63,866 nucleotides of DNA from Patescibacteria group bacterium (GTDB taxonomy: Bacteria > Patescibacteriota > Patescibacteriia > Patescibacteriales > JBAZCA01): contig JBAZUL010000010.1 in NCBI GenBank assembly GCA_041661405.1, positions 1-63,866 of the forward strand, read 5' to 3'. The position numbers were made by a program, and so were the translations under genes. Under the pieces are notes generated by a model. The model had not been told where the DNA came from. It did not search any database and saw only the letters and a program-made list of their open reading frames with translations. Within the stretch, counting starts at the first letter, position 1. Every line of letters starts with the position of its first letter. This document shows, piece by piece, positions 2,113 to 58,419 of the stretch.

Positions 2113-2184
2113 GAAAAATGAATCTTCAATTTTCAATTACGAATTCTCGCGGCTAAAGTTAATTCGTAATTGAAAATTGGAAAA

Positions 2185-3060
2185 TTATGTTTCCGCTCTT
2201 CCGACGGGGTAACGTCCGGCTGAACCGAAAATTTTTACTTTTTCCGCGACCACTTTTTCCACGGCGGCGATCGTCGGCGCCAGGAGTACCCTTGGGTCGG
2301 TTTCATTTTTATTTTTAGCGCAGGTTTCAATCAAAGTTTTTGAAAAAGCGATTTTTAAATCACTGCCGATATTGACTATATTTACCCCCAGCCGCACCGC
2401 CTCGCGCATATCTTCTTCTTTTACGCCCGAACCGCCATGGAGAACGAAAGGAATCTTTATCCTCTCTTTTATGGCTCTTAAAGCCTCAATGTCAACTCTT
2501 TCGTTTTCATAAACCCCGTGGGCCGTTCCGATCGGAGCGGCAACGGTATCTATTTTCGTCGCTTTAACGAATTCCGCGACCTTATCCGGATCGGCGATTG
2601 TAACGCCACTGATAGTTTTACCTTTATTGCCGTGGCCGCCGATCATTTCTCCGAGCTCACCCTGAACCCAGACGCCTTTAGGCCGCGCGATTTCAACTAC
2701 ATGCCGGGTAAGGCTTACGTTTTCGTCGTAAGGGAGACTAGAAGCGTCAATGTGAACTGAAGTAAAACCGGAACTGATACATTCAAAAACCGCGTCAAAA
2801 CTTTTTCCGTGGTCAAGATGCAGGGCGACCGGAACATTGACGGCGATATTTTTCGCGACGGTGGAAACAAGGTGGGTAATCGGTTTCACTCCCATGTATT
2901 CAATGACATTCTGGGAAACCTGGATAATGACCGGCGAACCGGAATTTTGCGCCGCGCGCGCCACTCCGAGCGCCATCTCTATGTTTAAAATGTTAAACGC
3001 GCCAAGAGCATAACCGCCTTTTTCCGCCTCTTTAACCAATTCTTTGATGTGAACCAGCAT
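2185..3060 (-). CDS. fba: Class II fructose-bisphosphate aldolase
   Basis: Motifs GAFNI, LHLDHG, SVHIDAS, QGELG, IGTAHG, LHGGSG. Confidence 0.95.
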   Translation of the reverse strand: MLVHIKELVKEAEKGGYALGAFNILNIEMALGVARAAQNSGSPVIIQVSQNVIEYMGVKPITHLVSTVAKNIAVNVPVALHLDHGKSFDAVFECISSGFTSVHIDASSLPYDENVSLTRHVVEIARPKGVWVQGELGEMIGGHGNKGKTISGVTIADPDKVAEFVKATKIDTVAAPIGTAHGVYENERVDIEALRAIKERIKIPFVLHGGSGVKEEDMREAVRLGVNIVNIGSDLKIAFSKTLIETCAKNKNETDPRVLLAPTIAAVEKVVAEKVKIFGSAGRYPVGRAET

Positions 3061-3119
3061 ATTTAATTCTCAATTACGAATTATCAATTATCAATTTAAT
3101 AACAAGTAATTCGTAATTT

Positions 3120-3884
3120 TTAATTGATAATTAATTCCGCCACCTTATAAAATTCATCCGCGTCAAGACTCGCGCCGCCGACAAGGAAACCGTCAAGATG
3201 CGCGAGGCCTTTGAACTCGGTGACATTTTTCGGCGAAACGCTTCCGCCGTAAATAATCCGGAAAACTCTAGCGGAAATTTTCGCGCCGAAAAGCTCGTTT
3301 AAAGTAAGGCGGATTATCTTATGGGCGTAATCGCACTCCGACGGCTCAATCGCGGTTCCCGAACCGATCGCCCAAATCGGCTCGTAAGCCACGACGATTT
3401 TCTGATCCTCCGTAAGGTTAAGCCCGCCAAAAGCCTGATTAACCTGGTCAATCAGAATAAAATCGCGCTTGTCGGTTTTGCGCTCGTCCTTTTCTTCGCC
3501 GACACAGACGATTGGCATTAGATTTTCTACTTCCAGCACGGCTTTAAGCTTCTTATGGATCATCTCATAATTTTCCAGCATATATCGCCTGCGCTCCGAA
3601 TGGCCGATAATAACCATATCGCAACCGGCCTCGCTAAGGTTCAGCGCCGAAATTTCGCCGGTATAAGCGCCTTTCTCTTCCCAAAAAACATCCTGCGCTC
3701 CGAGTCTCAGGGGACTGCCGGCCAATATTTTTTTCACTTCGCTTAAAGCGATGAAATTCGGGCAAATTCCCGCCTCGCCGTCTTCAAATCCTTTAAATTT
3801 TTCTTTCATTTTTTTCGCCAAATCAAGGGACTCTTTGAGCCCGAGCTTCATTTTCCAGTTGGCAATGACTATTCGGTTGGACAT
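3120..3884 (-). CDS. tpiA: Triosephosphate isomerase
   Basis: Motifs ANWKM, GHSERR, AYEPIWAIG, YGGSV, LVGGAS. Confidence 0.97.
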   Translation of the reverse strand: MSNRIVIANWKMKLGLKESLDLAKKMKEKFKGFEDGEAGICPNFIALSEVKKILAGSPLRLGAQDVFWEEKGAYTGEISALNLSEAGCDMVIIGHSERRRYMLENYEMIHKKLKAVLEVENLMPIVCVGEEKDERKTDKRDFILIDQVNQAFGGLNLTEDQKIVVAYEPIWAIGSGTAIEPSECDYAHKIIRLTLNELFGAKISARVFRIIYGGSVSPKNVTEFKGLAHLDGFLVGGASLDADEFYKVAELIIN

Positions 3885-3942
3885 AGAAATATAAAATGTA
3901 AAATATTTTTTTATTTTTTAATTTTCATTTAACCACATTATA

Positions 3943-4956
3943 TCACCTTCCCTCCTCATCGGCAACACCGTCTTCCCATTTAAAACTATCAAATATCCAC
4001 TTAACAAGACCGCCTGTTTCGGAGAACCTTGCTTCAACCGTGGGCGCTCCCAAAACAACGGTGATAAGCTCATGCCCGTCTTTCTTAAACTGGCCGACAA
4101 AGCAGTAACCGGCTTCTTCGGTAAACCCGGTTTTTCCTCCGGCAATCTCAAGACCATCTTCCATTTTTTCCCTTAAAAGCTGGTCGGTGGATAATATTAT
4201 TTTCTCTTTTCCCTGCGATGTCTTAAACCGGTACTCTCCGGTTAGGGTCGCCTGACGGATATCTTCGTTGCGTAAGGCGATCGCCGCGAACTTGGCGATT
4301 TCCTCGGCCGTGGATTCGTTTCCCGCGAGGCCGGTCGCGTCAATAAATTTTGTATTTGACATCCCGAGAATTGCCGCCCGCTCATTCATTTTTTCAACGA
4401 ATTCTTCCTCATTCATGCCGGTAGAATGCACGAGCGCCGCGGTAGCGGTATTGTCGGAAGCGACGAGGCTCACGTAAAAAATATCTTTTACTTTCATCTT
4501 TTCGCCGTAATAAAGATAAATTTTTCCCCCTTCCCTCCGGTCTTCTCTTTTCATCTCGTAAACCGTTTCCCAGCCGGGATTAAAATCAAGAAAAACCAAA
4601 GCGGTCATCAGCTTGGTAATGCTCGCTATCGGCCATTTTTCCCGGGCTGATTGCTCAAAAATCACATCATTGGTCTCGCAGTCAACGGCCACGGCGCTTC
4701 TGGCCGCGACTTTTATTCCTGATACTTTCGGCCTTGGCTTGGGAGGCGCGGGCTTGTTTTTATTTTCCGGCAGTTTGTTAAAGCCCAAAAGCCCGAGAGT
4801 GTTGTCTTTAATACCGCCCACTATTCCGGCGATCCGGTTCCTTTCATCCGCCGTCAAACCGAAAAACTCCGGCTTAATTAAGCCGGAAGCTAAAACAGAA
4901 TTAAGCAAAATTGTATAGCAGATGAACGCGGACGTTAAGACGGGCGCGAGAAACAT
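3943..4956 (-). CDS. D-alanyl-D-alanine carboxypeptidase/endopeptidase (peptidase S11)
   Basis: N-terminal signal/TM; SxxK (ASITK), SDN and KTG motifs. Confidence 0.9.
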   Translation of the reverse strand: MFLAPVLTSAFICYTILLNSVLASGLIKPEFFGLTADERNRIAGIVGGIKDNTLGLLGFNKLPENKNKPAPPKPRPKVSGIKVAARSAVAVDCETNDVIFEQSAREKWPIASITKLMTALVFLDFNPGWETVYEMKREDRREGGKIYLYYGEKMKVKDIFYVSLVASDNTATAALVHSTGMNEEEFVEKMNERAAILGMSNTKFIDATGLAGNESTAEEIAKFAAIALRNEDIRQATLTGEYRFKTSQGKEKIILSTDQLLREKMEDGLEIAGGKTGFTEEAGYCFVGQFKKDGHELITVVLGAPTVEARFSETGGLVKWIFDSFKWEDGVADEEGR

Positions 4957-4964
4957 AGTTTAGA

Positions 4965-5501: not shown

Positions 5502-5536
5502 AATTTAAAAAAACGGCTGACGGAAAAAATCTGATG

Positions 5537-6274: not shown

Positions 6275-6280
6275 TTAATT

Positions 6281-6856: not shown

Positions 6857-6858
6857 AT

Positions 6859-7896
6859 TTATTTCACTTCAATCGGCTTAATCGGCGACCCTTGGGCGTC
6901 CAACAGCTCGGCTTTTTTAGTAAAACATTGGAAGCCGGCGTCATGCGCCCAGCGCTCCTCAAGAAAAGGATCAATGATTTCCGCGTCATCTTTATTGGAA
7001 TCCTTGTTGCTTAAATTAAAAGTCGCGCAAATTTCATAGCTATCCGCGGTTATTTTCTTATAATCAAAAACTTTGCCGGTCGCCGGATCTTTAGTAGCTT
7101 CTTCGGTGATAAAAATCTGCCGGGACGAGTCTTTTAACAAATCCTCCAGTTTTTCCGGAACCGCTTTTTCCTTATTGTAATACACGTTCACCGCGTCATC
7201 AATCTGGCTTAGATTCGTTAAAATCTGCCGGTCGTGGTTTCTTGCCCGAACTTTGGCCGGCGACTCAATGAAGAAAAAGCTGGCGATGAGGGAAACGATA
7301 ACCAGCGCCAGCGCGCCGTAAAAATAAGCCTGAAGAATAATATCCTTGCCAACGGCTTCTTTGCGGCGGATGTCGTAGAAATAAAAACTGAAAATTATTC
7401 CGGAAATAATTATTGAGGTCGCGGCCTTTAGGATAAACTTTACGGTCAATTCGCCGTTTAAAAAATTATTCAGAGTGGCGATCAGCCAGCCGATCATGAC
7501 GACAGTTGAAACAAAGAGGATAAAATAAGTAAGCCACTTCCGCACTTCGGAATCTTTTCCTAAGAGGCCGGACGCCATGCTCTTAAAAATCTGCCGCATG
7601 GTGACAAAATAAATCGGCGCGGCAATTACGAGCGCCGATATGGCGAAGCGCAGAGCGCCGGAAGAAAACCGGCCCTGGAATAAATTCAGCGGATCGGCGA
7701 ATGATTTGTTAATGATCTGGAACGCGATCATGCCGATTGAGATGGAGCTGAAAATCAAGGCCACGAGCGAAAGCATGTAGAAAAACGCGTACTTGGCCGA
7801 ATTTTGGTTTGAGTCCATAGATTTTGAAGCTGAAAATAAGATGAAAAAAAAGGCGAAAACAACAATAATTAGGATGGGGAAAATCGCAATCATCAT
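6859..7896 (-). CDS. DUF5671-type multi-TM membrane protein with a pseudopilin-like C-terminal domain
   Basis: About 6 TM helices, RKWLTYFILFVS motif; C-terminal RDxQxLxNL..I..AV..YY..P..L..L...DPATG..F.Y. Confidence 0.6.
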   Translation of the reverse strand: MMIAIFPILIIVVFAFFFILFSASKSMDSNQNSAKYAFFYMLSLVALIFSSISIGMIAFQIINKSFADPLNLFQGRFSSGALRFAISALVIAAPIYFVTMRQIFKSMASGLLGKDSEVRKWLTYFILFVSTVVMIGWLIATLNNFLNGELTVKFILKAATSIIISGIIFSFYFYDIRRKEAVGKDIILQAYFYGALALVIVSLIASFFFIESPAKVRARNHDRQILTNLSQIDDAVNVYYNKEKAVPEKLEDLLKDSSRQIFITEEATKDPATGKVFDYKKITADSYEICATFNLSNKDSNKDDAEIIDPFLEERWAHDAGFQCFTKKAELLDAQGSPIKPIEVK

Positions 7897-7924
7897 AATT
7901 TCAGCTTAAATTAAGTTATACGGA

Positions 7925-7957
7925 TATTATAGCACTATTTTGCCTAAAGCAAAATAG
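7925..7957 (-). promoter_or_regulatory. Extended -10 promoter (TGCTATAAT) of the DUF5671 gene with an overlapping 9-5-9 inverted repeat
   Basis: CTATTTTGC (7935-7943), CTAAA, GCAAAATAG (7949-7957); TATAAT on the minus strand at 7925-7930. Confidence 0.5.
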
Positions 7958-8097
7958 CGCGCAATCCTTTTATCGCCCCTGATTAAGACGAAGGGGCTGT
8001 AAAAAACTTGCCGTTTAAACGTCTCTAATTTTACTAAATACACAAATATTATAATTAACATTACTTATATATTACATAGAGAGGAGGTGACATACTT

Positions 8098-8808
8098 ATG
8101 AAAACAATAAAAAAAGGCAGAAAATCAATACTAAGCCTGGCGGTCGCGGCTCTTTTCTTATTAGTAACAATCTATCCGGCCAGCGCCGATTCAGGCGATA
8201 AGGATATGAATTCCAGGGCGGGAAATATGATGCTTAAACACATGTCCGCCATGCCGGATGAAGAATCCATGGATATGGAAGAAATGCATAAAATGATGGG
8301 CGATATGGTTATCCTTAAAGCCAAACTAACAGGCGGAAAAGAGGTTCCAGGAAATGATTCTCCCGCGCGGGGAGCCGGAGTTTTCGCGCTTGACCGGGTT
8401 AATAATACCCTTCTTTTCTGGATTAATTATAATGGATTAGAAGGGGCGAGAACCGGCGCCCATATCCACGGACCGGCCATGGCGGGACAAAACGCGCCGG
8501 TGATGATTAGCCTGCCGGCCGGAAAACCGATTACCGGCTCAGCCTACGTAACTGACGCCCAGGAAACGGCTTTAATGTCCGGCCTGACCTACGTTAATAT
8601 CCATACTGATGAATACCCGAACGGCGAAATCCGCGGCCAGCTTAAAGTCAAGGATATGGCAAAACACATGGAAATGATGAAGAAGATGATGGAGATGATG
8701 GGCAACGGAAACGGCATGCCTGGAATTATAACAAAAGATATGATGGAAAAGGCGTTGGACGCGAGGAAAAACATGATAAGCATGATGATGGATCAGATGA
8801 TGAAATGA
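8098..8808 (+). CDS. Secreted CHRD-domain protein with Met-rich flanks
   Basis: RBS AGGAGGT; signal peptide; CHRD motifs LTGGKEVP, AHIHGP, TYVNIHTDEYPNGEIRGQL; about 32 Met in 236 aa. Confidence 0.85.
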   Translation: MKTIKKGRKSILSLAVAALFLLVTIYPASADSGDKDMNSRAGNMMLKHMSAMPDEESMDMEEMHKMMGDMVILKAKLTGGKEVPGNDSPARGAGVFALDRVNNTLLFWINYNGLEGARTGAHIHGPAMAGQNAPVMISLPAGKPITGSAYVTDAQETALMSGLTYVNIHTDEYPNGEIRGQLKVKDMAKHMEMMKKMMEMMGNGNGMPGIITKDMMEKALDARKNMISMMMDQMMK

Positions 8809-8837
8809 CGAAAATCAGGAAACAACCGTTTCAAATA

Positions 8838-8868
8838 AAAACCGCCCCGTTTAAATCGGGGTGGTTTT
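8838..8868. terminator. Bidirectional intrinsic terminator between convergent CHRD and yqeY genes
   Basis: AAAACCGCCCCG-tttaaat-CGGGGTGGTTTT. Confidence 0.75.
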
Positions 8869-8928
8869 GATTTTTATCGCGCCACTCAGCCAGTCCTCGC
8901 GAACCGCGGATTTTTTCCAGCCCCGGGA

Positions 8929-9384
8929 CTATTTATTTTCCATCGCCTTCTTCACCGCGGCGCTTACCCGGTTGCCGTCGGCTTTGCCTTTTACTCTACC
9001 CATAACTTTTCCCATTATCGCGCCGAAATTAGCGCCCGACCCGGCTTCAACAACAGTATTTTTCACAATTTGCTCTAATTCTTCATCGGACATTTGTTCC
9101 GGTAAATACACCTCAAGAATTTTAATTTCTTCTTTTTCTTTTTCCGCGAGGTCAGCTCTCCCGCCGTCTTCATAAGCGATAACCGAATCTTTCCGCTTTT
9201 TAACCTCAGCCGCGATTACTTCTAAAACCTGTTCATCGCTTAAAACAACATCTTCGCCCTTTCGGAGAGCGATTTCTTTTGTCTGGATAGCGGTCGCAAG
9301 CATCCTAAGCACGGACAATTTTTCCGCTTCTTTAGCTTTCATGGCCGCCACTAAATCAGCTTTTAGTTTTTCTTTCAGGGTCAT
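8929..9384 (-). CDS. GatB/YqeY domain protein
   Basis: LKADLVAAMKAK...KKRKDS...GGRADLAEKEKEE...YLPEQMS...GKADG. Confidence 0.93.
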   Translation of the reverse strand: MTLKEKLKADLVAAMKAKEAEKLSVLRMLATAIQTKEIALRKGEDVVLSDEQVLEVIAAEVKKRKDSVIAYEDGGRADLAEKEKEEIKILEVYLPEQMSDEELEQIVKNTVVEAGSGANFGAIMGKVMGRVKGKADGNRVSAAVKKAMENK

Positions 9385-9396
9385 ATGGATTGAGCT

Positions 9397-13986: not shown

Positions 13987-13989
13987 GTG

Positions 13990-14073
13990 ATTAGACGTCA
14001 GACGGCGGATAACAGACGACAGGCCATTAGGAAGAGTACCGTTATCTGTTATCTGTTATCTGTTATCTGATTA
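13990..14073. repeat. 7-nt-period inverted-repeat element (TTATCTG family)
   Basis: (TTATCTG)x4 at 14042-14069 facing CAGACGG/GATAACAG units; encodes the last codons of ruvX. Confidence 0.7.
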
Positions 14074-14441
14074 CTGTCCAAATAACTTTGCAATATTAAC
14101 ATAGCGGACACCGCGTCTTTGTCGGCCTTAACTTTTTTTCCGCCGCTAAGCGATTTAGCGAGACGGGTGGTGAGTCGCTCGTCAATAGTTTCTATCGGCA
14201 AGCTGGTTTTCTTTTTTAATTCGCCGATAAACTCATCAACTTTCTTTTTATTTCCGCCTTCTTCATTCCTTAAAGTAACGGGCGAGCCGATGATTATTTT
14301 TTCCACTTCTTCTTCTTTAATCGCTTTTACGACATCTTTAATGGTTTTGACCACGCGAAAAGGAATAGCCAGACCCGTTTCCGAGTCAGCCATGGCAAGT
14401 CCAATACGATCAGTTCCCCAGTCGATGCCCAGGTATCTCAT
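14049..14441 (-). CDS. ruvX: Holliday junction resolvase RuvX/YqgF
   Basis: MRYLGIDWGTDRIGLA, DERLTT, DAVSAMLILQSYL; start moved to MRYLG. Confidence 0.93.
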   Translation of the reverse strand: MRYLGIDWGTDRIGLAMADSETGLAIPFRVVKTIKDVVKAIKEEEVEKIIIGSPVTLRNEEGGNKKKVDEFIGELKKKTSLPIETIDERLTTRLAKSLSGGKKVKADKDAVSAMLILQSYLDSNQITDNR

Positions 14442-14454
14442 AAATTTTTTTAAC

Positions 14455-14547
14455 GTCACTAAGCGTAGCGAAGAATCCCGTGTTATAATATTATGCGGCG
14501 AGATTCTTCGTCCCGCATTTATGGGGCTCAGAATGACAATGGAATTA
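14455..14547. repeat. REP/MITE-like palindromic element with a nested hairpin
   Basis: GTCACTAAGCGTAGCGAAGAATC...GATTCTTCG[TCCCGCATTTATGGGG]CTCAGAATGAC. Confidence 0.65.
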
Positions 14548-14549
14548 AT

Positions 14550-15419: not shown

Positions 15420-15421
15420 AA

Positions 15422-22063: not shown

Positions 22064-22130
22064 ATATAGCGTTTAGCGTATAACGTTTAACAAATAGACA
22101 CAGTTTATAATTTTAACTATATCCTAAACC

Positions 22131-22670
22131 CTACACGCTCTTAAAGGGAAACCCCATTAATTTTAACAATTCTAAACCTTCTTCCCTGGTCTTGGCGGTC
22201 GTGGCTACGCACACTTCCAGCCCGTGGATATTATCAGCTTCGTCAGTGCGGATCTCCGGGAAAACTACGTGTTCGCGGAAGCCGACGGAAAGATTTCCCG
22301 TCCGGTCAACCTGGCTTTGGCTTATCCCTCTGAAATCCCGGACGCGGGGAAAAGATATGTTAACCAGCTTTTCCAAAAAATCATACATCCGCCGACCGCG
22401 AAGAGTAGTCATCACCCCCACAATCATCCCCTGCCTGACTTTAAAAGTTGCAATGGATTTTTTGGCTTTGGTCTCTACCGGTTTCTGTCCGGCGATTTTC
22501 GCCACGCTCTTTATCACTTCGTCAATATAGGCCTTTTCTTTGGCGTTTCTTCCCACGCCGACGTTAATCGTCACCTTCGTAACCCGGGGCGTTTGCATTT
22601 CATTCTTATAGCCGAACTTCGCTTTCATCTTCGGTAATATTTCTTTTTTGTATTTTTCTTGTAATCTCAT
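22131..22670 (-). CDS. rplE: 50S ribosomal protein uL5
   Basis: MRLQEKY, TLRG, LVNISFPRVRDFRG; start moved to MRLQ. Confidence 0.96.
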   Translation of the reverse strand: MRLQEKYKKEILPKMKAKFGYKNEMQTPRVTKVTINVGVGRNAKEKAYIDEVIKSVAKIAGQKPVETKAKKSIATFKVRQGMIVGVMTTLRGRRMYDFLEKLVNISFPRVRDFRGISQSQVDRTGNLSVGFREHVVFPEIRTDEADNIHGLEVCVATTAKTREEGLELLKLMGFPFKSV

Positions 22671-22748
22671 AATATATTCAATTTCCAATTATCAATTATC
22701 AATTTATTTTTTCGGGTCAATTCGTAATTCGTAATTGATAATTGAAAA

Positions 22749-23072
22749 TTAGTCTATCACTGCTTGGCATTTTTTGCATATCCTGAATTTATTTTTTTTA
22801 CCGTCCGGCAATACGGATATTTTATGGCCGGTCCGGGCCGGTTTGCCGCATTTAGGGCAGACGACCATCAGATTGGAAACGTTGAGCGGAGCCGGGAATT
22901 CAATTCTTTGGCCGGTTTCTCCCTGCTTCCTCGGGCGTAAATGTTTAATAAGCAGGTTAACGCCTTCCACGCTCGCGCGTTCCCGAACCGGAAAAACCTG
23001 CAAAACCTTTCCGGTCTTGCCTTTGTCTTTTCCCGCTAATATTTTAACTTTGTCGCCTTTCTTAATATTCAT
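22749..23072 (-). CDS. rplX: 50S ribosomal protein uL24
   Basis: IKKGDKVKILAGKDKGKTG; also carries CPKC and CKKC. Confidence 0.96.
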   Translation of the reverse strand: MNIKKGDKVKILAGKDKGKTGKVLQVFPVRERASVEGVNLLIKHLRPRKQGETGQRIEFPAPLNVSNLMVVCPKCGKPARTGHKISVLPDGKKNKFRICKKCQAVID

Positions 23073-23458: not shown

Positions 23459-23564
23459 AGCTTATTCAATCTTCAATCTTCAATTATCAATTTTCAATCA
23501 ATTTTTTTCATTAATTTATCCTATGTATTAAAAAATTGTAGATTGAAAATTGTAGATTGAAAAT

Positions 23565-23819
23565 TTAATAAATCACTTTCCATCTCTTGTCTTTTGACAA
23601 CGGCCGACATTCAATAAAATTAACCCGGTCGCCTTCTTTGAACTGGTTTTTCGCGTCATGAACCTTATACCTTTCGGATACGACGTATCTTTTCTTATAG
23701 CGCGGGTGGACGCGGGTCCGGTCAATCCTGACGACAATGGTCTTATCCATCTTGTCGGACACGACTACTCCGCTGAATTTTCTGATCTTTCTTTCTTTTT
23801 TTAAACTATCGTTATTCAT
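23565..23819 (-). CDS. rpsQ: 30S ribosomal protein uS17
   Basis: [25 protein letters not shown]. Confidence 0.96.
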
Positions 23820-24013: not shown

Positions 24014-24057
24014 AAACGTATTTTCATTCACCGCCCGCGATCGGGCAAATTTGTATC

Positions 24058-24462
24058 TTACTTCGTTACGAACTTGCATTTAACCGGCAACTTATACGCG
24101 GCCATTTCCAGGGCTTCCTGAGCCTGGCTTCCTGTTACGCCTTCCATTTCAAACATAACCATGCCGGGCTTTATTACGGCGACGTAATGGTCAACTCCGC
24201 CTTTGCCTTTGCCCATAGGCATTTCCCCGCCTTTGGCCGTAACTGGCTTATCGGGAAAAATCCGGATCCATATTTTTCCGCCTTTTTTCGTATAACGGGT
24301 AATTACTCTCCGGGCGGCTTCAATCTGTTTTGAGGAAACCCAGCAGTTTTCCAGACTTTTCAAACCGTAGCTTCCATAACTAACATTAGTAAGCCTCGTA
24401 GCAATGCCTCCCCGCTTGCCTTTCATCATTTTCCTGAATTTTGTTCTTTTTGGCATTAACAT
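24058..24462 (-). CDS. rplP: 50S ribosomal protein uL16
   Basis: [26 protein letters not shown]. Confidence 0.97.
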
Positions 24463-25153: not shown

Positions 25154-25239
25154 GTTATTAGTATAAAGTAATATAGTTATAAAGTTAAAAGTGATCAAAT
25201 TTACTTTTTACTTTATGAACTTTCAACTTTCAACTTAAT

Positions 25240-25848
25240 TTATCCGCTTTTTCTTCTGAACACTTTTCCGATAAAGCCTTTTTCCGAAGCGCCTTCAATC
25301 TTTACGTGCTTGCCCTTTCCTTCGCCTCTCGGGTCAACAATTTTTTTTCCTTTGTCTTCGGGTAATTTGCCGGCGGCCGGAATCTTCTGGTCTTCCTTTT
25401 TCTTCTTTATTTTAATGCCCTCGTCTTCTTTGGGCAAGGTTCCTGATTTTGAGATATCGCCGAGCTTTATCGGCGCTTCCACTGCTTTCTTTTTCGGCGT
25501 CTTCTTTCCGCTTTCAACAATTTCGGCCAACACTAAGGTTATATGACTGGTTCTTTTCCGGATCGGCGTGGCCCGGCCGTGGGCTTTGGGCATCCAGCGC
25601 TTTAAAACCGCCCCTCCGTCAACGGTCGCTTTTTTTATAAATAAATTATTTTTGTCCAAGTCAAAATTATGGACCGAATTGGCAATAGCTGAACTAATAA
25701 GCTTCACCACCGGCTTCCGAGCTTCCTTGTTTATGAATTGAAGCTGGTTTAGGGCTTTATTCACTTCCATTCCGCGCACAACGTCAATTACCAGACGGAC
25801 TTTCCTCGGCGATATTTTTAAATTGTTCAAATTGGCTTTTACTTCCAT
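25240..25848 (-). CDS. rplV: 50S ribosomal protein uL22 with a long Lys-rich C-terminal extension
   Basis: ISPRKVRLV, RWMPKAHGRA, SHITLVL, then about 90 extra residues. Confidence 0.95.
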   Translation of the reverse strand: MEVKANLNNLKISPRKVRLVIDVVRGMEVNKALNQLQFINKEARKPVVKLISSAIANSVHNFDLDKNNLFIKKATVDGGAVLKRWMPKAHGRATPIRKRTSHITLVLAEIVESGKKTPKKKAVEAPIKLGDISKSGTLPKEDEGIKIKKKKEDQKIPAAGKLPEDKGKKIVDPRGEGKGKHVKIEGASEKGFIGKVFRRKSG

Positions 25849-25917
25849 GTATTTATTATAAAGTTGAAAGTTATAAAGTTAAAAGTGTTCTTAACTTTCC
25901 GCTTTATAACTTTCAAC

Positions 25918-26211
25918 TTATTTCGGGGCGGCCGCTTTAGCCTGATCTTTGGCGATTTTTCCTCCGTGGCTCACGAACTTTCTTGTCGGGGAAAACTCGC
26001 CCAGCCGGTGTCCGACCATGTTTTCGGTAATAAAAACGGGCACATGCTGTTTTCCATTATGCACCCCGATAGTAAATCCTACCATCTCAGGCGTAATAAC
26101 GCAACCCCTGTCCCATACCTTAATGACGGTCTTGTCGCCGGGTTTCAGGTTCATGACCTTCTTCAGTATTCTTGGGTTTACGTAGGGTCCTTTTTTTAAA
26201 CTTCTTGACAT
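25918..26211 (-). CDS. rpsS: 30S ribosomal protein uS19
   Basis: [22 protein letters not shown]. Confidence 0.97.
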
Positions 26212-26305
26212 ATTTGCGAGTTTATAAAGTTTTTAAGCTAAAAGTTATTAAGTATTTTTATTCTACTCCGTAAACTTTATAACTTTCTGCTTTTAACTTT
26301 TTTTA

Positions 26306-27145: not shown

Positions 27146-27239
27146 ATTTATTCAATTTCTCAATTACGAATTATCAATTACGAATTTTTTACCGTCAAAC
27201 TTTCAATTGGTAATTCGTAATTGCAAATTGACAATTGAT

Positions 27240-27731
27240 CTAAACTCCTTCGTAAACATTAATGCTCTTTCCGGCCGGCAGGGTAACAACGGCTTTTTTC
27301 CAGTCTTTTCTCACCCCTTTAATTTTGCCGTAACGGACTTTCTTACCTTTATTGTTAATAATGTTAACTTTTACCGGCTTAATTCCGTAAACCTCAAAAA
27401 TTGCTTTAGCGACTTCAATCCGGTTAGCGCCCAAGGAAACGGAAAAATTATACTTATTTAATGAACTCAATACCGAAGCTTTTTCCGTTACCAGCGGTTT
27501 TATTAAAACCTTGTAAGCGCTGCCGTAAACCTTCTTTTCTCCGGCTCCGGCTGAACCGGTTCCTTTAGTCTTTTTCGCGGCAGTCGGTTTAGCGGCGGTT
27601 CCGGAATACAAATCTTTCATGCTTTTCTTTTCATCCTGAACAGCTTTTTCTCCAGCCTTAACTCCGGCTGTTTTAGGAACAGCTTTTTTCGTCTCAACGC
27701 TTTCATCTTTTTTTCCGAATAATGCGGACAT
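27240..27731 (-). CDS. rplW: 50S ribosomal protein uL23 with a long N-terminal extension
   Basis: LIKPLVTEKA...KDWKKAVVTL; about 70-aa extension. Confidence 0.93.
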   Translation of the reverse strand: MSALFGKKDESVETKKAVPKTAGVKAGEKAVQDEKKSMKDLYSGTAAKPTAAKKTKGTGSAGAGEKKVYGSAYKVLIKPLVTEKASVLSSLNKYNFSVSLGANRIEVAKAIFEVYGIKPVKVNIINNKGKKVRYGKIKGVRKDWKKAVVTLPAGKSINVYEGV

Positions 27732-38316: not shown

Positions 38317-38478
38317 GGAGAATTTAACTCACAAATATACAAATCACCTCACAAACGCGCGCGTACTTCCGGATTTGTGAATAGATTTGTTGATTTGTGA
38401 AAATGTCAATTTTTTAAGCAACCAATACTTTACATCCATTCTAAACCCCCGAAATTAAGATGGCAAGCTGAAGCGCGC

Positions 38479-39000
38479 TTAATCCCGCATTTTAACTAAA
38501 AGCCAAAGCCCTTTCCCTTTTTCCCGCCTGAATCTTGTTAAGGCAAAACCGCCTTTTAATTTCCGACCCTTTAAGTTCACGGCCAGATGCCCTTTCTTTA
38601 AGGACGTTTCCATGGACGCGGGAAGCAAATTCGCGTAAGTCCCCTTGTCCCAGATTTCTACGGTTCCGGCGCCGTATTCTCCCTCAGGAATCACACCTTT
38701 AAAATTCAGGTATTCAACCGGATGGTCTTCAACTTTTACGGCCAGCCGTTTTACGCTCGGGTCAAGCGATGGCTCTTTTGGAACGGCCCAGGACGCGAGC
38801 GCGCCGCCGATCTCCAGCCGGAAATCATAATGCAGATGGGAAGCGTCATGTTTTTGGATGACAAAACGATTTTTTCCGGCCTCACTTTTTTTCGCAATCT
38901 CCTTTGGCTTTTCAACGGCTTTTTTGCCAACGACAACTTTCCCACCCTTTGGTTCCGGAGTTTTACTAAAATCTCTTTTTTTTAAATATTTTTCCAGCAT
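38479..39000 (-). CDS. Stand-alone LigD-type 3'-phosphoesterase domain protein
   Basis: [55 protein letters not shown]. Confidence 0.92.
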
Positions 39001-40116: not shown

Positions 40117-40121
40117 AGCAG

Positions 40122-51210: not shown

Positions 51211-51238
51211 TTACTCCTCCTTTCATTATCATGATCAG

Positions 51239-51416
51239 TGAGATAGTTACAAAATTACTTTTAAGTGAGATTTAGAACTTTTTGGCTAAGACGAGGAAAG
51301 CCAGCGAAAGGATTTGAGGCGTAGCAGAGCTACGGTGAAAATCATTTCGCGCCAGCTTGACGAAGTATTAGCCAAAAAGGACAAATCGTAGCAAAAGGAA
51401 TTTTGCAACTATCTCA
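51239..51416. mobile_element. 178-bp MITE-like quasi-palindromic element
   Basis: 18-bp TIRs TGAGATAGTTACAAAATT / AATTTTGCAACTATCTCA (one mismatch); inner IR CTTTTTGGCTAA/TTAGCCAAAAAG; central CGTAGC-AGA-GCTACG. Confidence 0.65.
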
Positions 51417-51465
51417 TTATAACAGATATGTTTCGGATGGCCAAACTCTTCTTTGAAACAGTTTC

Positions 51466-51537: not shown

Positions 51538-51566
51538 CCCAGGATATTGCAACTGGCAATTTCAAT

Positions 51567-51639: not shown

Positions 51640-51664
51640 CCGATAGAATCGTAAAGCAAGAGTT

Positions 51665-51730
51665 TGATCCCGCCCTTCGTAAAGGGCGGGATCATCCCGT
51701 CCCGCAGTATTGCGGGATAAGGCATGCGGG
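51665..51730. repeat. Cluster of nested TCCCG...CGGGA hairpins
   Basis: TGATCCCGCCCTTCGTAAAGGGCGGGATCA; TCCCGCAGTATTGCGGGA; AAGGCATGCGGG shared with the 51-nt repeat. Confidence 0.7.
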
Positions 51731-51756
51731 GCGAATCCCACTTTTGGCTCAAATTT

Positions 51757-53304: not shown

Positions 53305-53310
53305 ATCGGC

Positions 53311-53745: not shown

Positions 53746-56489
53746 GTTTTTTTGGATACCGCCAGATTATTTCTGGCATCGTCTCCTGATTTTCTGAAGT
53801 AATACTTTACCAATTCAATCAGCAGGATATTCAATGCCCCGACCGAAATTATAAGCGGCCAGACGTTAAGCTCCAGGTCAACGGTAGAGAGAAGAACCTG
53901 AAACGGGGCGAAATAAATGGCCGAGACCAGCAGGGCGAGACTGGCGGATACGGCGGCCAAAAGGCGGGGATTACCGAGCGGATTCATCCGCCAAACCGGA
54001 ATTTCAAAGCTCCTTAAACTGAAAATATATAAAAGCGAATCAAACCCGGCGCAGGCGAATATGACAGTCCGTATGTAATCAATATTATAATACTCTTTCA
54101 GTAAATAGTAAAAAATTCCGAAGACAAAAATATCGCTTATCACTCCGGCGGCGATGACGATGGTTTTCATCTCCCGGTTAAAAATCGGTTCATTTTTCGG
54201 CCGGGGCTTTCTTTCCATTACTCCGGCTTCGCCTTTTTCAAAGGAAAGGGCAAAGCTCGGCAGACTGTCGTTTACTATATTGATCCAGAGAATCTGCGCC
54301 GGAAGGATGGCGAGCGGCAGGCGGAATAAAAGACAGCCGGCGATTAAAATCATCTCGGAAAAACTGTCGGACAAAAGATAAATCATCACCTTTCGGATGT
54401 TGGAAAAAATAACCCGTCCCTGCCGGACGGCCGAAACAATGGTGGAAAAATTATCGTTTAAAAGGACAATGTCGGCGGCTTCCTTTACCGCGTCGGTTCC
54501 CGACCCGAGGGCTATTCCTATGTCTGATGATTTTATGGCCGGCGCGTCGTTAACGCCGTCTCCGGCCATGGCGACCACCTCCCCCCGCTCTTTTAAAGCC
54601 TTGATGATGCGCAGTTTGTGGTGCGGGCTTACCCGGGCGTAAAGGTTCACGCCGGAACATTTTTCCAGAAGCTCCCGGTCATCCATTAAATCAAGCTCCG
54701 GACCGGTAAGAATGCATTTTTCGCTAATTTTCAATCCGGCCTCGCGGGCGATTGAAGCGGCGGTGAGTTTGTAATCCCCGGTAATAATCACCGGCCGGAT
54801 ACCGGCTTTACCGCACATTTCTATGGTTTGGCGCGCTTCAGCCCGAAGCGGGTCTTTTAAAACCATCAGTCCGGCAAAAACCAATTTTTCGCAAAGCTTA
54901 TTCGGATCATTTTCTTTTTCCCCTTCCGGAACGGCGCGGTAAGCGAGAGCGAGAACCCGGAGGCCTTCGGAGGCCAGTTTCTTAAACTCAAAAATTATAT
55001 CCTCGCGCTGTTTTTTCGCCATGATCCTAACTTTGGTTCCCTCTAAAAAATAGCGCGAACAGTTTAAAATCACTTCCGGCGCGCCCTTGGCGAAGAGGAC
55101 TCTTCCGGCGGTTATGAACTTATTTTTCTTTTTCACGGCGTGCAAAGTGGCCATGAATTTTTTTTCCGAATCAAAAGGAATTTCATCCAGGCGCGGGTAT
55201 TCTTCTTTTTCCTGAAAATAGTTAAACCCCGCCTGGATAGGGGCGAGCATGGCGGCCGAATCAGTCGGCGAGCCGATAATTTTTGAAATGTTGGCGTCTT
55301 TGGCCGTCCCGTCAGTGATCTCGCCCTCGGGAAAAGCGTCGTTGGCATGCAGGCCGATGCGGAGAGCATGAAAAACAAGCTCCGGATCTTCGTGCTTAAA
55401 TTCCCCTTTTACGAGGTCAATTTTCTGGTCCGGAAAAATCAGGTTTACCACCTGCATTTTTCCTTCGGTCAGGGTGCCGGTTTTGTCGGCGCAAATTACG
55501 GTAACAGAACCCAAAGTTTCGGTTGCCGAGAGTTTGCGGACCAGGGCTTTTTCGCGGACAAGAGCCTGCGTGCCGATGGTTAAAATCACGGTAATGGCGA
55601 TCGGCAATCCTTCGGGTATGGAAGAAACCGCTATGGCTACGCTCGCGAGAAAAATCTGGAAAAGATCATATCCGGCGGCGGCTCCGGCGAAGAATATTAA
55701 AGCGCAGAGGAAGAGGATTAGGAGGCCGACCTGATTGGAAAACTTTTTTAACCGCTCCTGCAAAGGGGTGGCTTCTTCCTCAACCGACTCGGCAAGCCGG
55801 ACGATTTTCCCGATTTCGGTATTAAGGCCGGTCGCGGCGACAACTGCTTTGGCGTTTCCTTTTATGGCAACGGTTCCCATGTAAGCCATTCCGGTCCGGT
55901 CGCCTAAAGCGCTCCCGACTCCGTTCTTTTCCGCTGACTTTTTTACCGGAATCGCCTCGCCGGTAAGGATCGCCTCGTTTATTTCCAATTCCTCACATTC
56001 AAAAATCCGGCAATCAGCCGGGACGCTTAACCCGCCTAATAAGTAAACAACATCGCCCGGCGCGAGCTCGGCGGCCGGAATTTTTTTGTTCTCCCCGTCC
56101 CGCAAAACCAGAGCGGTCGGAACCATAAGGCTGGCGATTTTTTTAAGCGACTCATTGGCTTTATCTTCCTGTAAAAATCCGATAACCGCGTTTACTATGA
56201 GCGCCGCGAAAATAACTCCGGCGTCAATGAAATGGCCGAAGCCGAGGGAAACCGCCCCGGCAACGATAAGAATATAAATCAGCGGACTTTTAAACTGGGA
56301 AAAAAAGAGTCCTAGCCTGCCGGATTTTTCTCTTTCCGGAAGCGAATTTTTTCCAAAGGCGGCGAGCTTCTTTGCCGCTTCAGCGGAAGTTAATCCCGAC
56401 GCTCCCGACGAAAGCGCCGAAAAAACCGCCTTAATGCCCATGGCATGCCAATTCGCTTCCTTTGTTAATAATTCTTTCGAGTTTTCCAT
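53742..56489 (-). CDS. P2-type cation-transporting ATPase (Ca2+-like)
   Basis: TGE, PEGLP, DKTGT, KGAPE, GDGVND; start MENS (56507 possible). Confidence 0.93.
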   Translation of the reverse strand: MENSKELLTKEANWHAMGIKAVFSALSSGASGLTSAEAAKKLAAFGKNSLPEREKSGRLGLFFSQFKSPLIYILIVAGAVSLGFGHFIDAGVIFAALIVNAVIGFLQEDKANESLKKIASLMVPTALVLRDGENKKIPAAELAPGDVVYLLGGLSVPADCRIFECEELEINEAILTGEAIPVKKSAEKNGVGSALGDRTGMAYMGTVAIKGNAKAVVAATGLNTEIGKIVRLAESVEEEATPLQERLKKFSNQVGLLILFLCALIFFAGAAAGYDLFQIFLASVAIAVSSIPEGLPIAITVILTIGTQALVREKALVRKLSATETLGSVTVICADKTGTLTEGKMQVVNLIFPDQKIDLVKGEFKHEDPELVFHALRIGLHANDAFPEGEITDGTAKDANISKIIGSPTDSAAMLAPIQAGFNYFQEKEEYPRLDEIPFDSEKKFMATLHAVKKKNKFITAGRVLFAKGAPEVILNCSRYFLEGTKVRIMAKKQREDIIFEFKKLASEGLRVLALAYRAVPEGEKENDPNKLCEKLVFAGLMVLKDPLRAEARQTIEMCGKAGIRPVIITGDYKLTAASIAREAGLKISEKCILTGPELDLMDDRELLEKCSGVNLYARVSPHHKLRIIKALKERGEVVAMAGDGVNDAPAIKSSDIGIALGSGTDAVKEAADIVLLNDNFSTIVSAVRQGRVIFSNIRKVMIYLLSDSFSEMILIAGCLLFRLPLAILPAQILWINIVNDSLPSFALSFEKGEAGVMERKPRPKNEPIFNREMKTIVIAAGVISDIFVFGIFYYLLKEYYNIDYIRTVIFACAGFDSLLYIFSLRSFEIPVWRMNPLGNPRLLAAVSASLALLVSAIYFAPFQVLLSTVDLELNVWPLIISVGALNILLIELVKYYFRKSGDDARNNLAVSKKT

Positions 56490-56579
56490 GATGTGAAAAT
56501 TATTCAATAAAAATCGCTCCGCTAAAATACCGCAACTATATTATTATAACACATTTTTGCTAATGGCTGAAACAACAAA

Positions 56580-56616
56580 AAACGCCCCTTTCTCTATAAA
56601 ACAGGGAAAGGGGCGC
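56580..56616 (-). terminator. Terminator after the malic enzyme gene
   Basis: CGCCCCTTTC...GAAAGGGGCG with a flanking A run. Confidence 0.65.
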
Positions 56617-56631
56617 GAGCAATGAAAAAAC

Positions 56632-57762
56632 TTATCTTATCGCCTTGGCAATTATTTTTACTACCTTTTTTTCGGTTACCAGCGGCAAAATTTTATCTTT
56701 TTTCGGTCTAAGCGAATAAGCAAGAGCTTCAGCGGCCTTCAGTTTCATTTTTGTTGTTACCATTTTAACGCGCCCGTCAAAAAGCCCGCGGAAAATGCCG
56801 GGAAAGACCAAGGCGTTATTAATCTGGTTCGGAAAGTCCGAGCGTCCGGTGCCGACGATTGAAGCTCCGGCGGAGTAAGCGTCGGGAGGCATAATTTCCG
56901 GAGTCGGATTGGCGAGGGCGAAAATTATCGGCCCGGAGCGCATGCTTTTTACCATTTCCCGGCTGACGAGATTTCCTTTGGAAAGCCCGATAAAAACGTC
57001 GGCGCCGATCATCGCTTCCTTCAAACCTCCGGCGATTTTTTCTTTATTAGTCTTTTTCGCGATCACTTCTTTGAACTTGTTTAAATTTTTCCGTCCTTCG
57101 TAGATTGTTCCCAGGCTGTCAAGAAGAAGGACGTCTTTTACTCCCTCTTCCATTAAGAGGCGGCTTACGGCAATGCCGGCCGCTCCGGCGCCGTTTACGA
57201 CGACTTTCAATTCCCCTAAAACTTTTCCCGTCACCCGGCAGGCGTTGATCAAAGCGGCTAAAACGACGATGGCGGTTCCGTCCTGATCGTCATGAAATAC
57301 CGGAATGGACAGTTCTTTTTCCAGCCGCTCAAGAATCTCAAAACATCTCGGCGCGGAAATGTCTTCCAGATTTATTCCGCCGAAGCTCGGCTGGATATTT
57401 TTACAGAATTTTATTATTTCCTCGGTGTCGGTCGTTCCAATGCAAAGCGGCGCCGCGTCCACGTTGGCGAAAACTTTAAAAATGGCGGCCTTGCCTTCCA
57501 TAACCGGCATTCCGGCTTCGGGCCCGATATCGCCTAAGCCCAAAATCGCCGTCCCGTCAGTAACGATGGCAACCGTATTGGCGCGGTTGGTGAGCTCCCA
57601 GGTCTTTTTCGGGCTTTCTTTTATCGCGAGGCAAACCGCGGCCACGCCCGGAGTATAAGCGAGCGCCAGGTCAATTTTATTTTTCAGGGGCACTTTAACC
57701 AGGGTGCCAATCTTTCCCCGGCGTTTCTCATGCAGGCTGATTGATTTTTTTGAATAGTCCAT
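56632..57762 (-). CDS. NAD(P)-dependent malic enzyme (short form, no PTA domain)
   Basis: AYTPGVA, VTDGTAILGLGDIG, PVMEGK, INLEDI, GAGAAG, ALANP; start moved to MDYS. Confidence 0.93.
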   Translation of the reverse strand: MDYSKKSISLHEKRRGKIGTLVKVPLKNKIDLALAYTPGVAAVCLAIKESPKKTWELTNRANTVAIVTDGTAILGLGDIGPEAGMPVMEGKAAIFKVFANVDAAPLCIGTTDTEEIIKFCKNIQPSFGGINLEDISAPRCFEILERLEKELSIPVFHDDQDGTAIVVLAALINACRVTGKVLGELKVVVNGAGAAGIAVSRLLMEEGVKDVLLLDSLGTIYEGRKNLNKFKEVIAKKTNKEKIAGGLKEAMIGADVFIGLSKGNLVSREMVKSMRSGPIIFALANPTPEIMPPDAYSAGASIVGTGRSDFPNQINNALVFPGIFRGLFDGRVKMVTTKMKLKAAEALAYSLRPKKDKILPLVTEKKVVKIIAKAIR

Positions 57763-57884
57763 AATTGAATTAATTCCAAATGTCAAATCAAATCCAAAAA
57801 CCAAAGTTTTTAAATTTTGAAATTGATTTGAAATTTGACATTTGAGCTTTGAAATTTTTGGTTTCCCTAATTTTAGTCTTTATT

Positions 57885-57951
57885 ATCTTACCATGCTTCC
57901 TTTGTCCTTGACAAGATTAGCCGTCCGGCATACTATACCCCAAGGGGGTAT
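57885..57951. promoter_or_regulatory. Back-to-back promoters with a CsoR-type operator
   Basis: Plus strand TTGACA(57908)-17-TACTAT(57931); minus strand TTGTCA-18-TAAGAT; operator ATACCCC-AAG-GGGGTAT (57935-57951). Confidence 0.75.
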
Positions 57952-58025
57952 GATGGAATAAAACAGCCCGAGTTAATTTATTCTTAATCTTCCGGAGCTA
58001 GCATCCTAAAGAAGAGCCAATTCTT

Positions 58026-58331
58026 ATGAAACAACTGATACTGGATAAGAAAAAAAGCCGAAAAAACAGCGCTATAAAGCAATCCGGGCGGGCTAAGGAT
58101 GAGTCCCGAAAAATTTTTCACCGCATCGCGAGGATTGAAGGCCAGCTCGGGGGCATCCGGCGCATGGTTTTGGAAAAAAAAGAATGCATGGACATAATTT
58201 CCCAGATCTCGGCTATCCGGGAAGCGGCCACCATGCTCGGCATTGAGCTCCTAAAAGACGATTTGATCTGCCGGAAGAAAACCGGTAATATTAATGAGAG
58301 GTATTTAAAAACATTATTTAAACTTAACTAA
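58026..58331 (+). CDS. CsoR/RcnR/CstR-family repressor
   Basis: RIARIEGQLGGIRRMV...ECMDIISQISAI...LLKDDLIC. Confidence 0.9.
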   Translation: MKQLILDKKKSRKNSAIKQSGRAKDESRKIFHRIARIEGQLGGIRRMVLEKKECMDIISQISAIREAATMLGIELLKDDLICRKKTGNINERYLKTLFKLN

Positions 58332-58419
58332 TCGTCCGCATAACGCGCGATCCGTAACGTAACGAAAAAATTTTCTTCAGAGCCGTTACGCGTTCCATGT
58401 TACGCGTTCTACGAAATTT

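Follow-up and report, generated by a model that had tools for sequence, protein, structure and literature searches.

To our knowledge, heptamer repeats are the only over-represented class of bacterial simple repeats without an accepted explanation, and the intervening sequences (IVS) of 23S rRNA, together with their four-helix-bundle open reading frame (ORF), have as far as we know gone unexplained for 30 years. Heptamers of the short tandemly repeated repetitive (STRR) type reportedly occur in cyanobacteria, and repetitive extragenic palindromic (REP) elements and REPINs are said to go with a REP-associated tyrosine transposase (RAYT). Here, we analyzed a stretch of 63,866 nucleotides (the window; contig JBAZUL010000010.1 of assembly GCA_041661405.1, from a Patescibacteria group bacterium) in which gene junctions hold hairpins with arms made of tandem 7-nt units. 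We consider it rather probable that these hairpins belong to a family of heptamer-armed hairpin cassettes, of which they would be rapidly turning-over forms without a gene, present in the junctions as palindromic DNA insertions.

The IVS in helix 45 of Coxiella burnetii 23S rRNA folds into a stem of 28 bp that is cut by RNase III, and it carries tandem heptamers along with an S23p ORF (Warrier et al. 2016, PMC4990558). Its heptamers, two to three copies of GACAGAT, adjoin the ORF and vary in copy number among strains (PMC4990558). The hairpins of the window resemble this IVS in several respects: both combine a long stem from terminal inverted repeats with tandem heptamers, the S23p cargo family (PF05635) is also found inside such arms in relatives of this genome, and each element would lie in a transcribed junction and fold out of it. 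Unlike the IVS, the elements described here lack an ORF, number dozens per genome and use many different units. All of them stand between protein genes rather than in a 23S helix, and a search of the assembly for 23S motifs found none. On contig C7, positions 1-192 hold the last 190 nt of a 16S rRNA gene with no 23S gene after it; a group I intron (C7:5483-5722, 83 bits) is located among four tRNA genes 5 kb downstream of the 16S end.

Intergenic heptamers of Xanthomonas and Nostoc (GGGAATC and GGGGA(C/T)T) were studied as G-quadruplex formers, and their repeat length varies among species while the repeat type is kept (Rehm et al. 2015, PMC4692102). In Xanthomonas, 70-75 convergent (inverted) heptamer pairs are capable of forming stem-loops and have no link to known transposable elements (PMC4692102). 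The present elements differ in having many AT-rich units instead of one G-rich unit, a much faster turnover and a link to cassettes in relatives. Direct intergenic repeats of TAACTGA are found in Beggiatoaceae, Cyanobacteria and Bacteroidetes (MacGregor 2015, PMC4679880), with 169 direct sets versus 1 indirect set (PMC4679880). Like these and the STRR heptamers, the arrays studied here occur just before start codons, ribosomal-protein operons included, in spacers that have no canonical ribosome-binding site, and they are patchily distributed across the phylogeny. By contrast, about half of the periodic junctions here are inverted pairs of diverse units, compared with almost exclusively direct repeats of a single unit there. 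The comparison with cyanobacterial STRR repeats made in the original prediction is borne out for tandem heptanucleotide arrays in intergenic DNA; the units are different and AT-rich and the host belongs to Patescibacteria, so that this is resemblance rather than membership.

REPIN-RAYT systems share with the hairpins a dispersed, extragenic and palindromic nature, frequent location in operons, the lack of target duplication and a gene-bearing form flanked by inverted repeat copies. However, our elements have tandem-array arms and no single consensus, no Y1 transposase is found in the genus, and relatives carry a four-helix-bundle or PD-(D/E)XK-fold protein as cargo. A search for many near-identical copies of one palindrome yielded arm-length matches of 19-32 nt only. 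The pattern of a miniature inverted-repeat transposable element (MITE) did not appear either, with 0-2 nt of microhomology at 33 clean indels and no transposase found. We found no paper on heptamer hairpins in the Candidate Phyla Radiation (CPR) or Patescibacteria, none linking four-helix-bundle (PF05635) or GxxExxY cassettes to gene-less intergenic heptamer hairpins, and none that connects heptamer arms with four-helix-bundle genes anywhere but in rRNA.

Heptamer repeats and hairpins in gene junctions

The genome (G000) is assembled into 18 contigs totalling 1.17 Mb, and the window is its contig C10. Relatives used for comparison, labelled Patescibacteria group, Falkowbacteria or Parcubacteria, included a sister genome (G002; 374 kb compared, L2 protein 96% identical), an outgroup of the same genus (G001; 80 kb compared, L2 protein 82% identical) and the order-level relative G022. 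Between 13 and 36.5 kb, the minus strand of the window carries the str/S10/spc ribosomal-protein operons (S12, S7, EF-G, EF-Tu, S10, L3, L4, L23, L2, S19, L22, S3, L16, L29, S17, L14, L24, L5, S8, L6 and onward). Further genes flanking elements in the window are those for TpiA, class II aldolase, RuvX, RecO, thioredoxin and malic enzyme.

A genome-wide scan detected 62 strong lag-7 tracts versus none in composition-preserving local shuffles. Control lags from 4 to 13 gave 0-7 tracts and lag 14 gave 20, and identity peaks at lags 7, 14 and 21 were confined to spacers, with none in genes. Using a windowed detector that requires at least 15 of 21 matches, we found 129 of 1040 junctions genome-wide (12.4%) to be periodic, compared with 0.8% of coding windows and 0.6% of shuffled junctions. 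These results refute chance as the source of the repeats. Within the window, 16 of 73 junctions were periodic, so the claim that the elements fill most intergenic spacers was overstated. Periodic junctions are enriched 3-fold in the ribosomal cluster (10/34 versus 119/1006 elsewhere, p 0.006). Tandem Repeats Finder (TRF) reported period-7 arrays at 3065, 14041, 22067, 22678-22750, 23465, 23532, 25200-25236, 25856, 27160, 30085, 35437, 36459, 37403 and 57826, so that the repeats themselves mostly lie where they had been placed.

Their folding into hairpins was less uniform. The 19 listed intervals were folded as RNA, each against 200 dinucleotide shuffles; 12 proved to be strong hairpins (z -3.6 to -8.2; marked in Table 1), two moderate ones (those starting at 25165 and 26216, z about -2.7), and the remaining five (33312, 35430, 37398, 58332 and 24010) were not significant hairpins. 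Intervals 33312, 35430 and 37398 are direct arrays only. Interval 24010, proposed as a (C/T)ACAAAT element at 24014-24070, is neither periodic nor a heptamer hairpin (fold z -1.1). Inside it, at 24035-24050, a small GC-rich hairpin (GCCCGCGATCGGGC), not a heptamer element, lies in coding sequence at the L16/L29 overlap. A perfect 19-bp stem proposed for 2127-2179 was found to be exact.

Genome-wide, there are 63 periodic hairpins (54 per Mb, versus 110 per Mb in the sister genome). Their arms consist of about 3-5 tandem units of 7 nt, sometimes 8 nt, and their stems typically begin 0-9 nt past a stop codon and reach to 4-13 nt ahead of the following start codon. This periodic class stands apart, among the genome's 56 strongest inverted repeats, from classical terminators, in which a GC stem lies between an A-run and a T-run. 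Period 7, put forward as the constant feature, is not exclusive, as a period-8 hairpin family with TTAGTTGA/TTAATTGG units is also present. Period-8 loci in this genome are C4:59298-59361, C11:6412-6485, C11:7637-7708, C12:31072-31125, C12:49901-49971 and C2:24534-24573, and the same 8-nt units occupy the L2|S19 junction in several order-level relatives (L004, L008, L017 and L022).

Some arms encode protein termini, as had been noticed. The right arm of the 3062 hairpin codes for the TpiA C-terminus (...LIIN), and the last six residues of RuvX, QITDNR, come from three GTTATCT units and extend past the end of the family model. The perfect arm there (14041-14069) has 100% matches by TRF over 4.1 copies, and the opposite arm is its degenerate complement.

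Turnover between genomes and cargo-bearing cassettes in relatives

Comparison of 181 orthologous junctions between the genome and its sister revealed 30 periodic junctions in the former and 39 in the latter. Both were periodic at 15 junctions versus 6.5 expected (odds ratio 5.3, p 1e-4). A candidate reading of strong site conservation, suggested by 13 of 17 sites that looked filled in the sister genome, was rejected; because the systematic count shrank the association to this odds ratio and a stricter detector showed none, we grade site conservation as modest. For the 17 strong hairpins with a sister counterpart, about 4 were conserved, about 9 had another unit at the same site and 3-4 sites were empty; in one of the conserved hairpins, a single additional unit in one of the arms is the exact difference. 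At S17|L14 and EF-Tu|S10 (23429 and 30043), the two genomes hold unrelated hairpins and the outgroup is empty. The hairpins at L2|S19 and L24|L5 are gains in the lineage of this genome, because the outgroup is empty there. The former is a blunt lineage-specific insertion with 0 nt of microhomology, as is found for the 82-nt site of the 58332 palindrome. Of 33 clean one-gap junction indels, 22 showed no microhomology, 8 showed 1 nt and 3 showed 2 nt, indicating neither target-site duplication nor slipped deletion between direct repeats.

At the strain level, two contigs from other samples were 99.68% and 99.94% identical over 5294 nt. They differed by 17 and 3 substitutions, none of them in 492 spacer nucleotides that include five hairpins, and by no indels. 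As unit number was unchanged between close strains in this small sample (five hairpins, two contigs), the hairpins are not contingency repeats. Thus, the hairpins are stable between strains and undergo nearly complete turnover between species of one genus. The comparison of sister genomes called for in the original prediction accordingly uncovered turnover at orthologous spacers, both as presence or absence and as unit replacement. Its proposal that architecture is kept while sequence is free also holds, since orthologous junctions in the sister genome and in order-level relatives contain hairpins with other units.

Neighbouring spacers share units, as first noticed. The local spread deduced from this sharing describes part of the picture only, because arm identities of 24-32 nt with other contigs were also found. 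Where a window hairpin matches another locus, it does so through one arm alone, over 19-32 nt with identities as high as 100% and an unchanged order of variant units; one arm of the 27148 hairpin is identical at 29/29 nt between C10:27164-27192 and C11:40058-40086. Canonical units common to this genome and order-level relatives numbered 24 versus 13.9 expected (p 0.0005). The arms draw on a restricted set of units that recurs at different loci and throughout the order. Period-7/8 arrays around L2 were present in 7 of 21 CPR-labelled genomes versus 1 of 44 from other phyla.

In relatives, similar arms enclose genes. The L23|L2 spacer of G022 is 508 nt long and forms a heptamer hairpin with a loop ORF that matches TIGR02436 (E 1.4e-20). 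This four-helix-bundle family, PF05635 or '23S rRNA-intervening sequence protein', has 0-15 copies per genome among 40 relatives. One locus per genome was considered; in 18 of the 26 that could be evaluated, the upstream and downstream flanks adjoining the gene are inverted copies of one another (z > 5 relative to shuffles) and visibly heptamer arrays, and most remaining loci have shorter arms. A second family, GxxExxY (TIGR04256 = PF13366, PDDEXK_3, with a PD-(D/E)XK fold), is present in 16 of 41 genomes, and five of six examined loci lie within inverted periodic arms 375-433 nt apart. Arms were traced from the window to cassettes for the AATTACG unit family. The commonest unit of the window is shared with both cassette types: TACGAATTACGAAT, at 22720 in the window, recurs in an arm of the four-helix-bundle cassette L057 and in both arms of the GxxExxY cassettes L175 and L177.

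Four-helix-bundle proteins are more alike where their arms are more similar (Mantel rho 0.27, p 0.0005), also for pairs in different genomic contexts: L055 and L057 encode 60% identical proteins and have AATTACG/AATTAAA arms in common, and L058 and L062 encode 47% identical proteins and have GATTTGC arms in common. In a set of 30 relatives, copy number of the family correlates with periodic spacers in the L23-S3 region (rho 0.44, p 0.016, without correction for phylogeny). The sister genome possesses four such cassettes, mutually 9-34% identical, including L055, which is built on AATTACG/AATTAAA units. At the orthologous sites of three of the four, this genome lacks the cassette: one site is a spacer of 8 nt, another a spacer of 9 nt separating two tRNA genes, and the third has a single direct arm. 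Because these sites are empty or single-armed, cassettes come and go as units, arms included. Gene-less elements of the same build show the following: 1) two inverted heptamer arms (14 hairpins in the window, 63 genome-wide); 2) arms homologous to those flanking cargo genes in relatives (TACGAATTACGAAT); and 3) gain or loss as a unit at junctions, without target-site duplication.

Profile searches with TIGR02436 gave no matches in this genome and the outgroup even at E <= 5, and those with TIGR04256 gave none in this genome, the outgroup and the sister. The co-occurrence with four-helix-bundle or GxxExxY genes that the original prediction proposed to test holds in relatives, where both families lie inside such arms, but not here, where neither gene is found. 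No cargo gene that might serve as a master copy was found in the same genome. ORFs inside long-range inverted arrays yielded four candidates, all ordinary host genes (e.g. atpF) between neighbouring same-unit hairpins. The Y1_Tnp profile (PF01797, RAYT) had no match in the three genomes, with controls responding, and we rejected a RAYT/IS200 driver for this reason. We also ruled out that the hairpins are fossils decaying without a four-helix-bundle gene, as stem complementarity is equal in this genome (0.931) and its sister (0.935); 20 hairpins here have perfect arms. At least two window hairpins were gained after the split from the sister genome. Because a lineage without a cargo gene or RAYT gained well-paired hairpins, the hairpins do not need a resident cargo protein, and a REPIN-RAYT-like mobilisation in trans by such a protein is weakened. 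This independence carries two caveats: gaps in the assembly and possible import of alleles by recombination. The genome thus serves as a natural control, with many heptamer-armed hairpins, some of them gained after the split, in the absence of both cargo families and RAYT. It speaks against the simple view that gene-less copies are mobilised in trans by the cargo protein, and shifts the focus to the arms themselves or some host process.

Origin and role of the hairpins

On the reading that we find rather probable, that of gene-less cassette relatives inserted as palindromic DNA, the hairpins would be co-transcribed with their operons and tolerated there, as a long stem could fold the insert away and bring stop and start codons back together. 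Such folding would restore cistron proximity because the stems begin and end so close to the two codons. By analogy with IVS stems, the stem may offer a cleavage site for RNase III, which is encoded at C1:188366-189028. The hairpins would be selfish or neutral rather than selected regulators. Arms shared between loci without their loops suggest arm-level copying or gene conversion plus fold-back synthesis: arm-length segments may be copied or converted between loci, a second arm may arise from fold-back copying, and slippage may then set the number of units. In the conserved element at C6:11514, one arm is homogenised to four identical units and the other is heterogeneous, indicating that arms evolve separately by slippage.

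Several observations weigh against this reading. A full-length donor copy was found in the genome for no window hairpin, as arms match and loops do not. The newly gained L2|S19 hairpin (26216) has no other copy in the genome, and its loop is found nowhere in metagenome contigs except at the same locus of the same species. In three of five filled/empty pairs, one unit-like word is present at the empty site, which also fits local growth or a deletion scar. The excess of shared units is modest and partly due to low-complexity A-rich units, and the correlations with four-helix-bundle genes are uncorrected for phylogeny. With 18 contigs, a cargo gene could hide in an assembly gap. No movement was observed and no enzyme identified. 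Finally, the non-random occupancy (co-occupancy and ribosomal enrichment) leaves room for function or insertion hot spots.

Among the alternatives is a variant that gives primacy to the hairpin itself: palindromes of 7-nt period would be written into junctions by a process that is host-encoded or driven by structure, possibly through copying of arms and subsequent snap-back synthesis at breaks or stalled forks, and the cargo genes would be secondary settlers of the loop. It would explain the well-paired hairpins and the gains without either gene, the presence of two unrelated cargo families on the same AATTACG arms, the sharing of arms but never of loops between loci, and the blunt insertions. 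We assign this variant a low probability; if it were true, the IVS of 23S rRNA would be one landing place of a general process.

A selected role in RNA is likewise unlikely. In such a role, the stems would punctuate polycistronic mRNA with their structure selected and their sequence free, serving RNase III processing, the stabilisation of 3' ends or the bringing together of stop and start codons for re-initiation where Shine-Dalgarno usage is low. Consistent with this are the span of the stems from stop codon to a few nucleotides before the start, the presence of an RNase III gene, the enrichment in the ribosomal-protein cluster, the co-occupancy of junctions in the two sister genomes, the different hairpins that fill 23429 and 30043 in these genomes while the outgroup is empty, and the filling of most of the four L23-S3 spacers in hairpin-bearing relatives. 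However, the stems of 81 periodic hairpins between co-directional genes (this genome and its sister) contain 26 sense-strand G:U mismatches, 35 antisense-only G:U (A:C) mismatches and 83 others. This lack of a sense-strand G:U excess leaves no signature of selection for RNA pairing, although the test rests on low counts. Orientation argues in the same direction, as co-directional, divergent and convergent junctions are periodic in 12.3%, 15.1% and 10.3% of cases. Specificity for 5' leaders was considered and rejected, as the convergent depletion had a p of 0.17 and was gone with a more sensitive detector. In addition, sister genomes manage with spacers of 0-17 nt at the same junctions, arms drift and homogenise independently, and many relatives have no hairpins. 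Given the turnover and an enrichment of only 3-fold in the ribosomal cluster, the suggestion that the repeats process or stabilise ribosomal mRNA finds no support in the sequence. Judged by their sequences, the hairpins appear to behave as DNA-level insertions rather than as conserved RNA regulators.

Local, host-driven growth without any mobile element seems quite unlikely. Slippage would first create a heptamer microsatellite, template switching or snap-back would add the inverse copy, and cargo genes would settle later. The single-arm arrays at 33316, 35432 and 37400, the one-unit difference between the two sister genomes at 3063, the unit-like words at empty sites, the locus-specific loops and the gains in a lineage without cargo genes fit such growth. 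Against it stand blunt 82-90-nt palindromes at seedless sites, such as the AATT spacer at L2|S19, and arms on different contigs that are identical over 24-32 nt down to the order of their variant units. Units common to distant genomes and to cassette arms, the presence or absence of whole cassettes with their arms as a unit, and the lack of slippage variants between strains are further points against it. Intrinsic transcription terminators or attenuators, which would share with the elements a stem-loop in non-coding DNA and, for a few, a place at gene 3' ends, are highly improbable, as the stems are AT-rich and without a U-tract, lie between co-transcribed genes inside the S10/spc operon, coexist with a separate classical terminator class and, unlike non-periodic hairpins, are not enriched at convergent junctions.

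Whatever their origin, the hairpins inflate and scramble operon spacers in Patescibacteria and can add residues to protein termini, as in RuvX and TpiA. They are thus relevant for gene calling and for searches for conserved regulatory RNAs in these genomes.

Element coordinates and neighbouring features

Table 1. Heptamer elements of the window, with their folding against dinucleotide shuffles and the state of the same junction in the sister genome (G002) and the outgroup (G001)
Positions	Strand	Element	Location	Folding	Same junction in G002 and G001
2113..2193	-	hairpin, AATTTTC/AATTACG units, 19-bp perfect core 2127-2145/2161-2179	downstream of class II fructose-bisphosphate aldolase gene (2185-3060)	strong, z -6.5	G002: hairpin with different unit
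3062..3135	-	hairpin, AATTATC/AATTACG units	between TpiA (3120-3884) and aldolase gene	strong, z -3.6	G002: kept, plus one AATTCGT unit in one arm; G001: empty (12 nt)
13987..14074	-	hairpin, (GTTATCT)x4 arm	between RuvX (14049-14459) and RecO	strong, z -3.9	
22066..22141	-	hairpin, TAGCGTT/TAGGGT units	just downstream of L5 (22131-22688)	strong, z -5.3	G002: 17-nt spacer
22676..22752	-	hairpin, AATTATC/AATTACG units, contains TACGAATTACGAAT (at 22720)	between L24 and L5	strong, z -5.5	G002 and G001: empty
23462..23570	-	hairpin, TTCAATC/CAATCTA units	between S17 and L14	strong, z -5.1	G002: AGTCAAA-type hairpin; G001: empty, 26 nt
25165..25240	-	moderate hairpin or array, AAAGTTA/AAAGTTG units	between L22 and S3	moderate, z -2.6	G002: AAAGTCC-type units
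25855..25922	-	hairpin, AAAGTTG/AAAGTTA units	between S19 and L22; stem foot overlaps S19 stop codon	strong, z -8.2	G002: non-periodic hairpin; G001: 17-nt spacer
26216..26305	-	imperfect 90-nt hairpin, AAAGTTA-type units	between L2 and S19	moderate, z -2.75	G002: 4-nt spacer (AATT); G001: 13-nt spacer
27148..27242	-	hairpin, 14-nt super-unit TCAATTACGAATTA	between L23 and L2	strong, z -5.4	
30075..30153	-	G-rich hairpin, TAGGGTG/TAGGGAT units	between EF-Tu and S10; end 4 nt ahead of S10 start codon	strong, -36 kcal/mol, z -4.3	G002: ATCTCAT units; G001: none
36457..36530	-	hairpin, TATAGGG units	upstream of S12 (36020-36445)	strong, z -4.7	
38325..38405	-	hairpin, CACAAAT units, GC-rich loop	downstream of LigD phosphoesterase-domain gene	strong, z -5.4	G002: absent
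57770..57862	-	hairpin, TCAAAT(N) units	5' end of malic-enzyme gene, divergent junction	strong, z -3.7	
58332..58413	+	weak imperfect palindrome, GTTACGC units	exactly between TAA stop of CsoR/RcnR-like gene and AAATTT-ATG of thioredoxin	z -0.55	G002: 0 nt (82 nt in G000)
37400..37436	.	direct array (CGTTATG)x4.4, no inverted partner		TRF; z 0.0	
35432..35490	.	direct array, TACAAAT units, no hairpin	between S7 and EF-G	TRF; z +0.6	
33316..33349	.	short direct run, TTATCTG-like units, no hairpin		0 kcal/mol	

Several proteins encoded beside the elements of Table 1 are longer than their family models. L23 (27240-27731) is extended by about 70 residues at its N-terminus, L22 (25240-25848) by about 95 at its C-terminus and S10 (29692-30072) by about 25 at its N-terminus, with the S10 start codon kept as ATG/GTG in the sister genome. 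The LigD-domain gene at 38479-39000 encodes a stand-alone 3'-phosphoesterase-domain protein (TIGR02777, 210 bits); it has no adjacent ligase or Ku gene, and its neighbours encode RlmN, a WecA/MraY-like transferase and a ClpA/B-like ATPase.

Other small elements occur as well. A GC-richer structured element at 14450-14549 (GCGAAGAATCCCGTG...GCGAGATTCTTCG...CTCAGAATGAC) looks like a different, MITE-like element in the same niche. Members of the GCGAAGAATCCCGTG-type family form clean insertions of 110-143 nt at several junctions of the sister genome, once abutting TACGAAT units. In the sister genome, a palindromic element of about 100 nt (GGAGAGTATTCCCGAATATACGAAT...ATTCGTATATTCGGGATTACTCC) occurs at its C5:42032-42292 and C5:11951-12073, orthologous to window positions 40118 and 58757. 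One copy occupies the loop of a CAATTAT heptamer hairpin, and the other adjoins a single arm; the former position indicates that hairpin loops also take up other small elements.

Further differences from the sister genome were also noted. A 182-nt long-stem element at 51233-51414 (GTGAGATAGTTACAAAATT...AATTTTGCAACTATCTCA) lies by tRNA-Gly/Thr genes, where the sister has 3 nt. Two insertions of about 1.1 kb are present at 7852-8939 (147 nt in the sister), with a signal-peptide protein at 8098-8808, and at 32216-33342 (128 nt in the sister), with small ORFs at 32238-32729 and 32733-33065. A perfect 24-bp palindrome with a 1-nt loop at 62324-62372 (GAAAATAAAAGTAGAGACGAGGCA/TGCCTCG...) is non-periodic and terminator-like, and the sequence of the sister genome there is unrelated.

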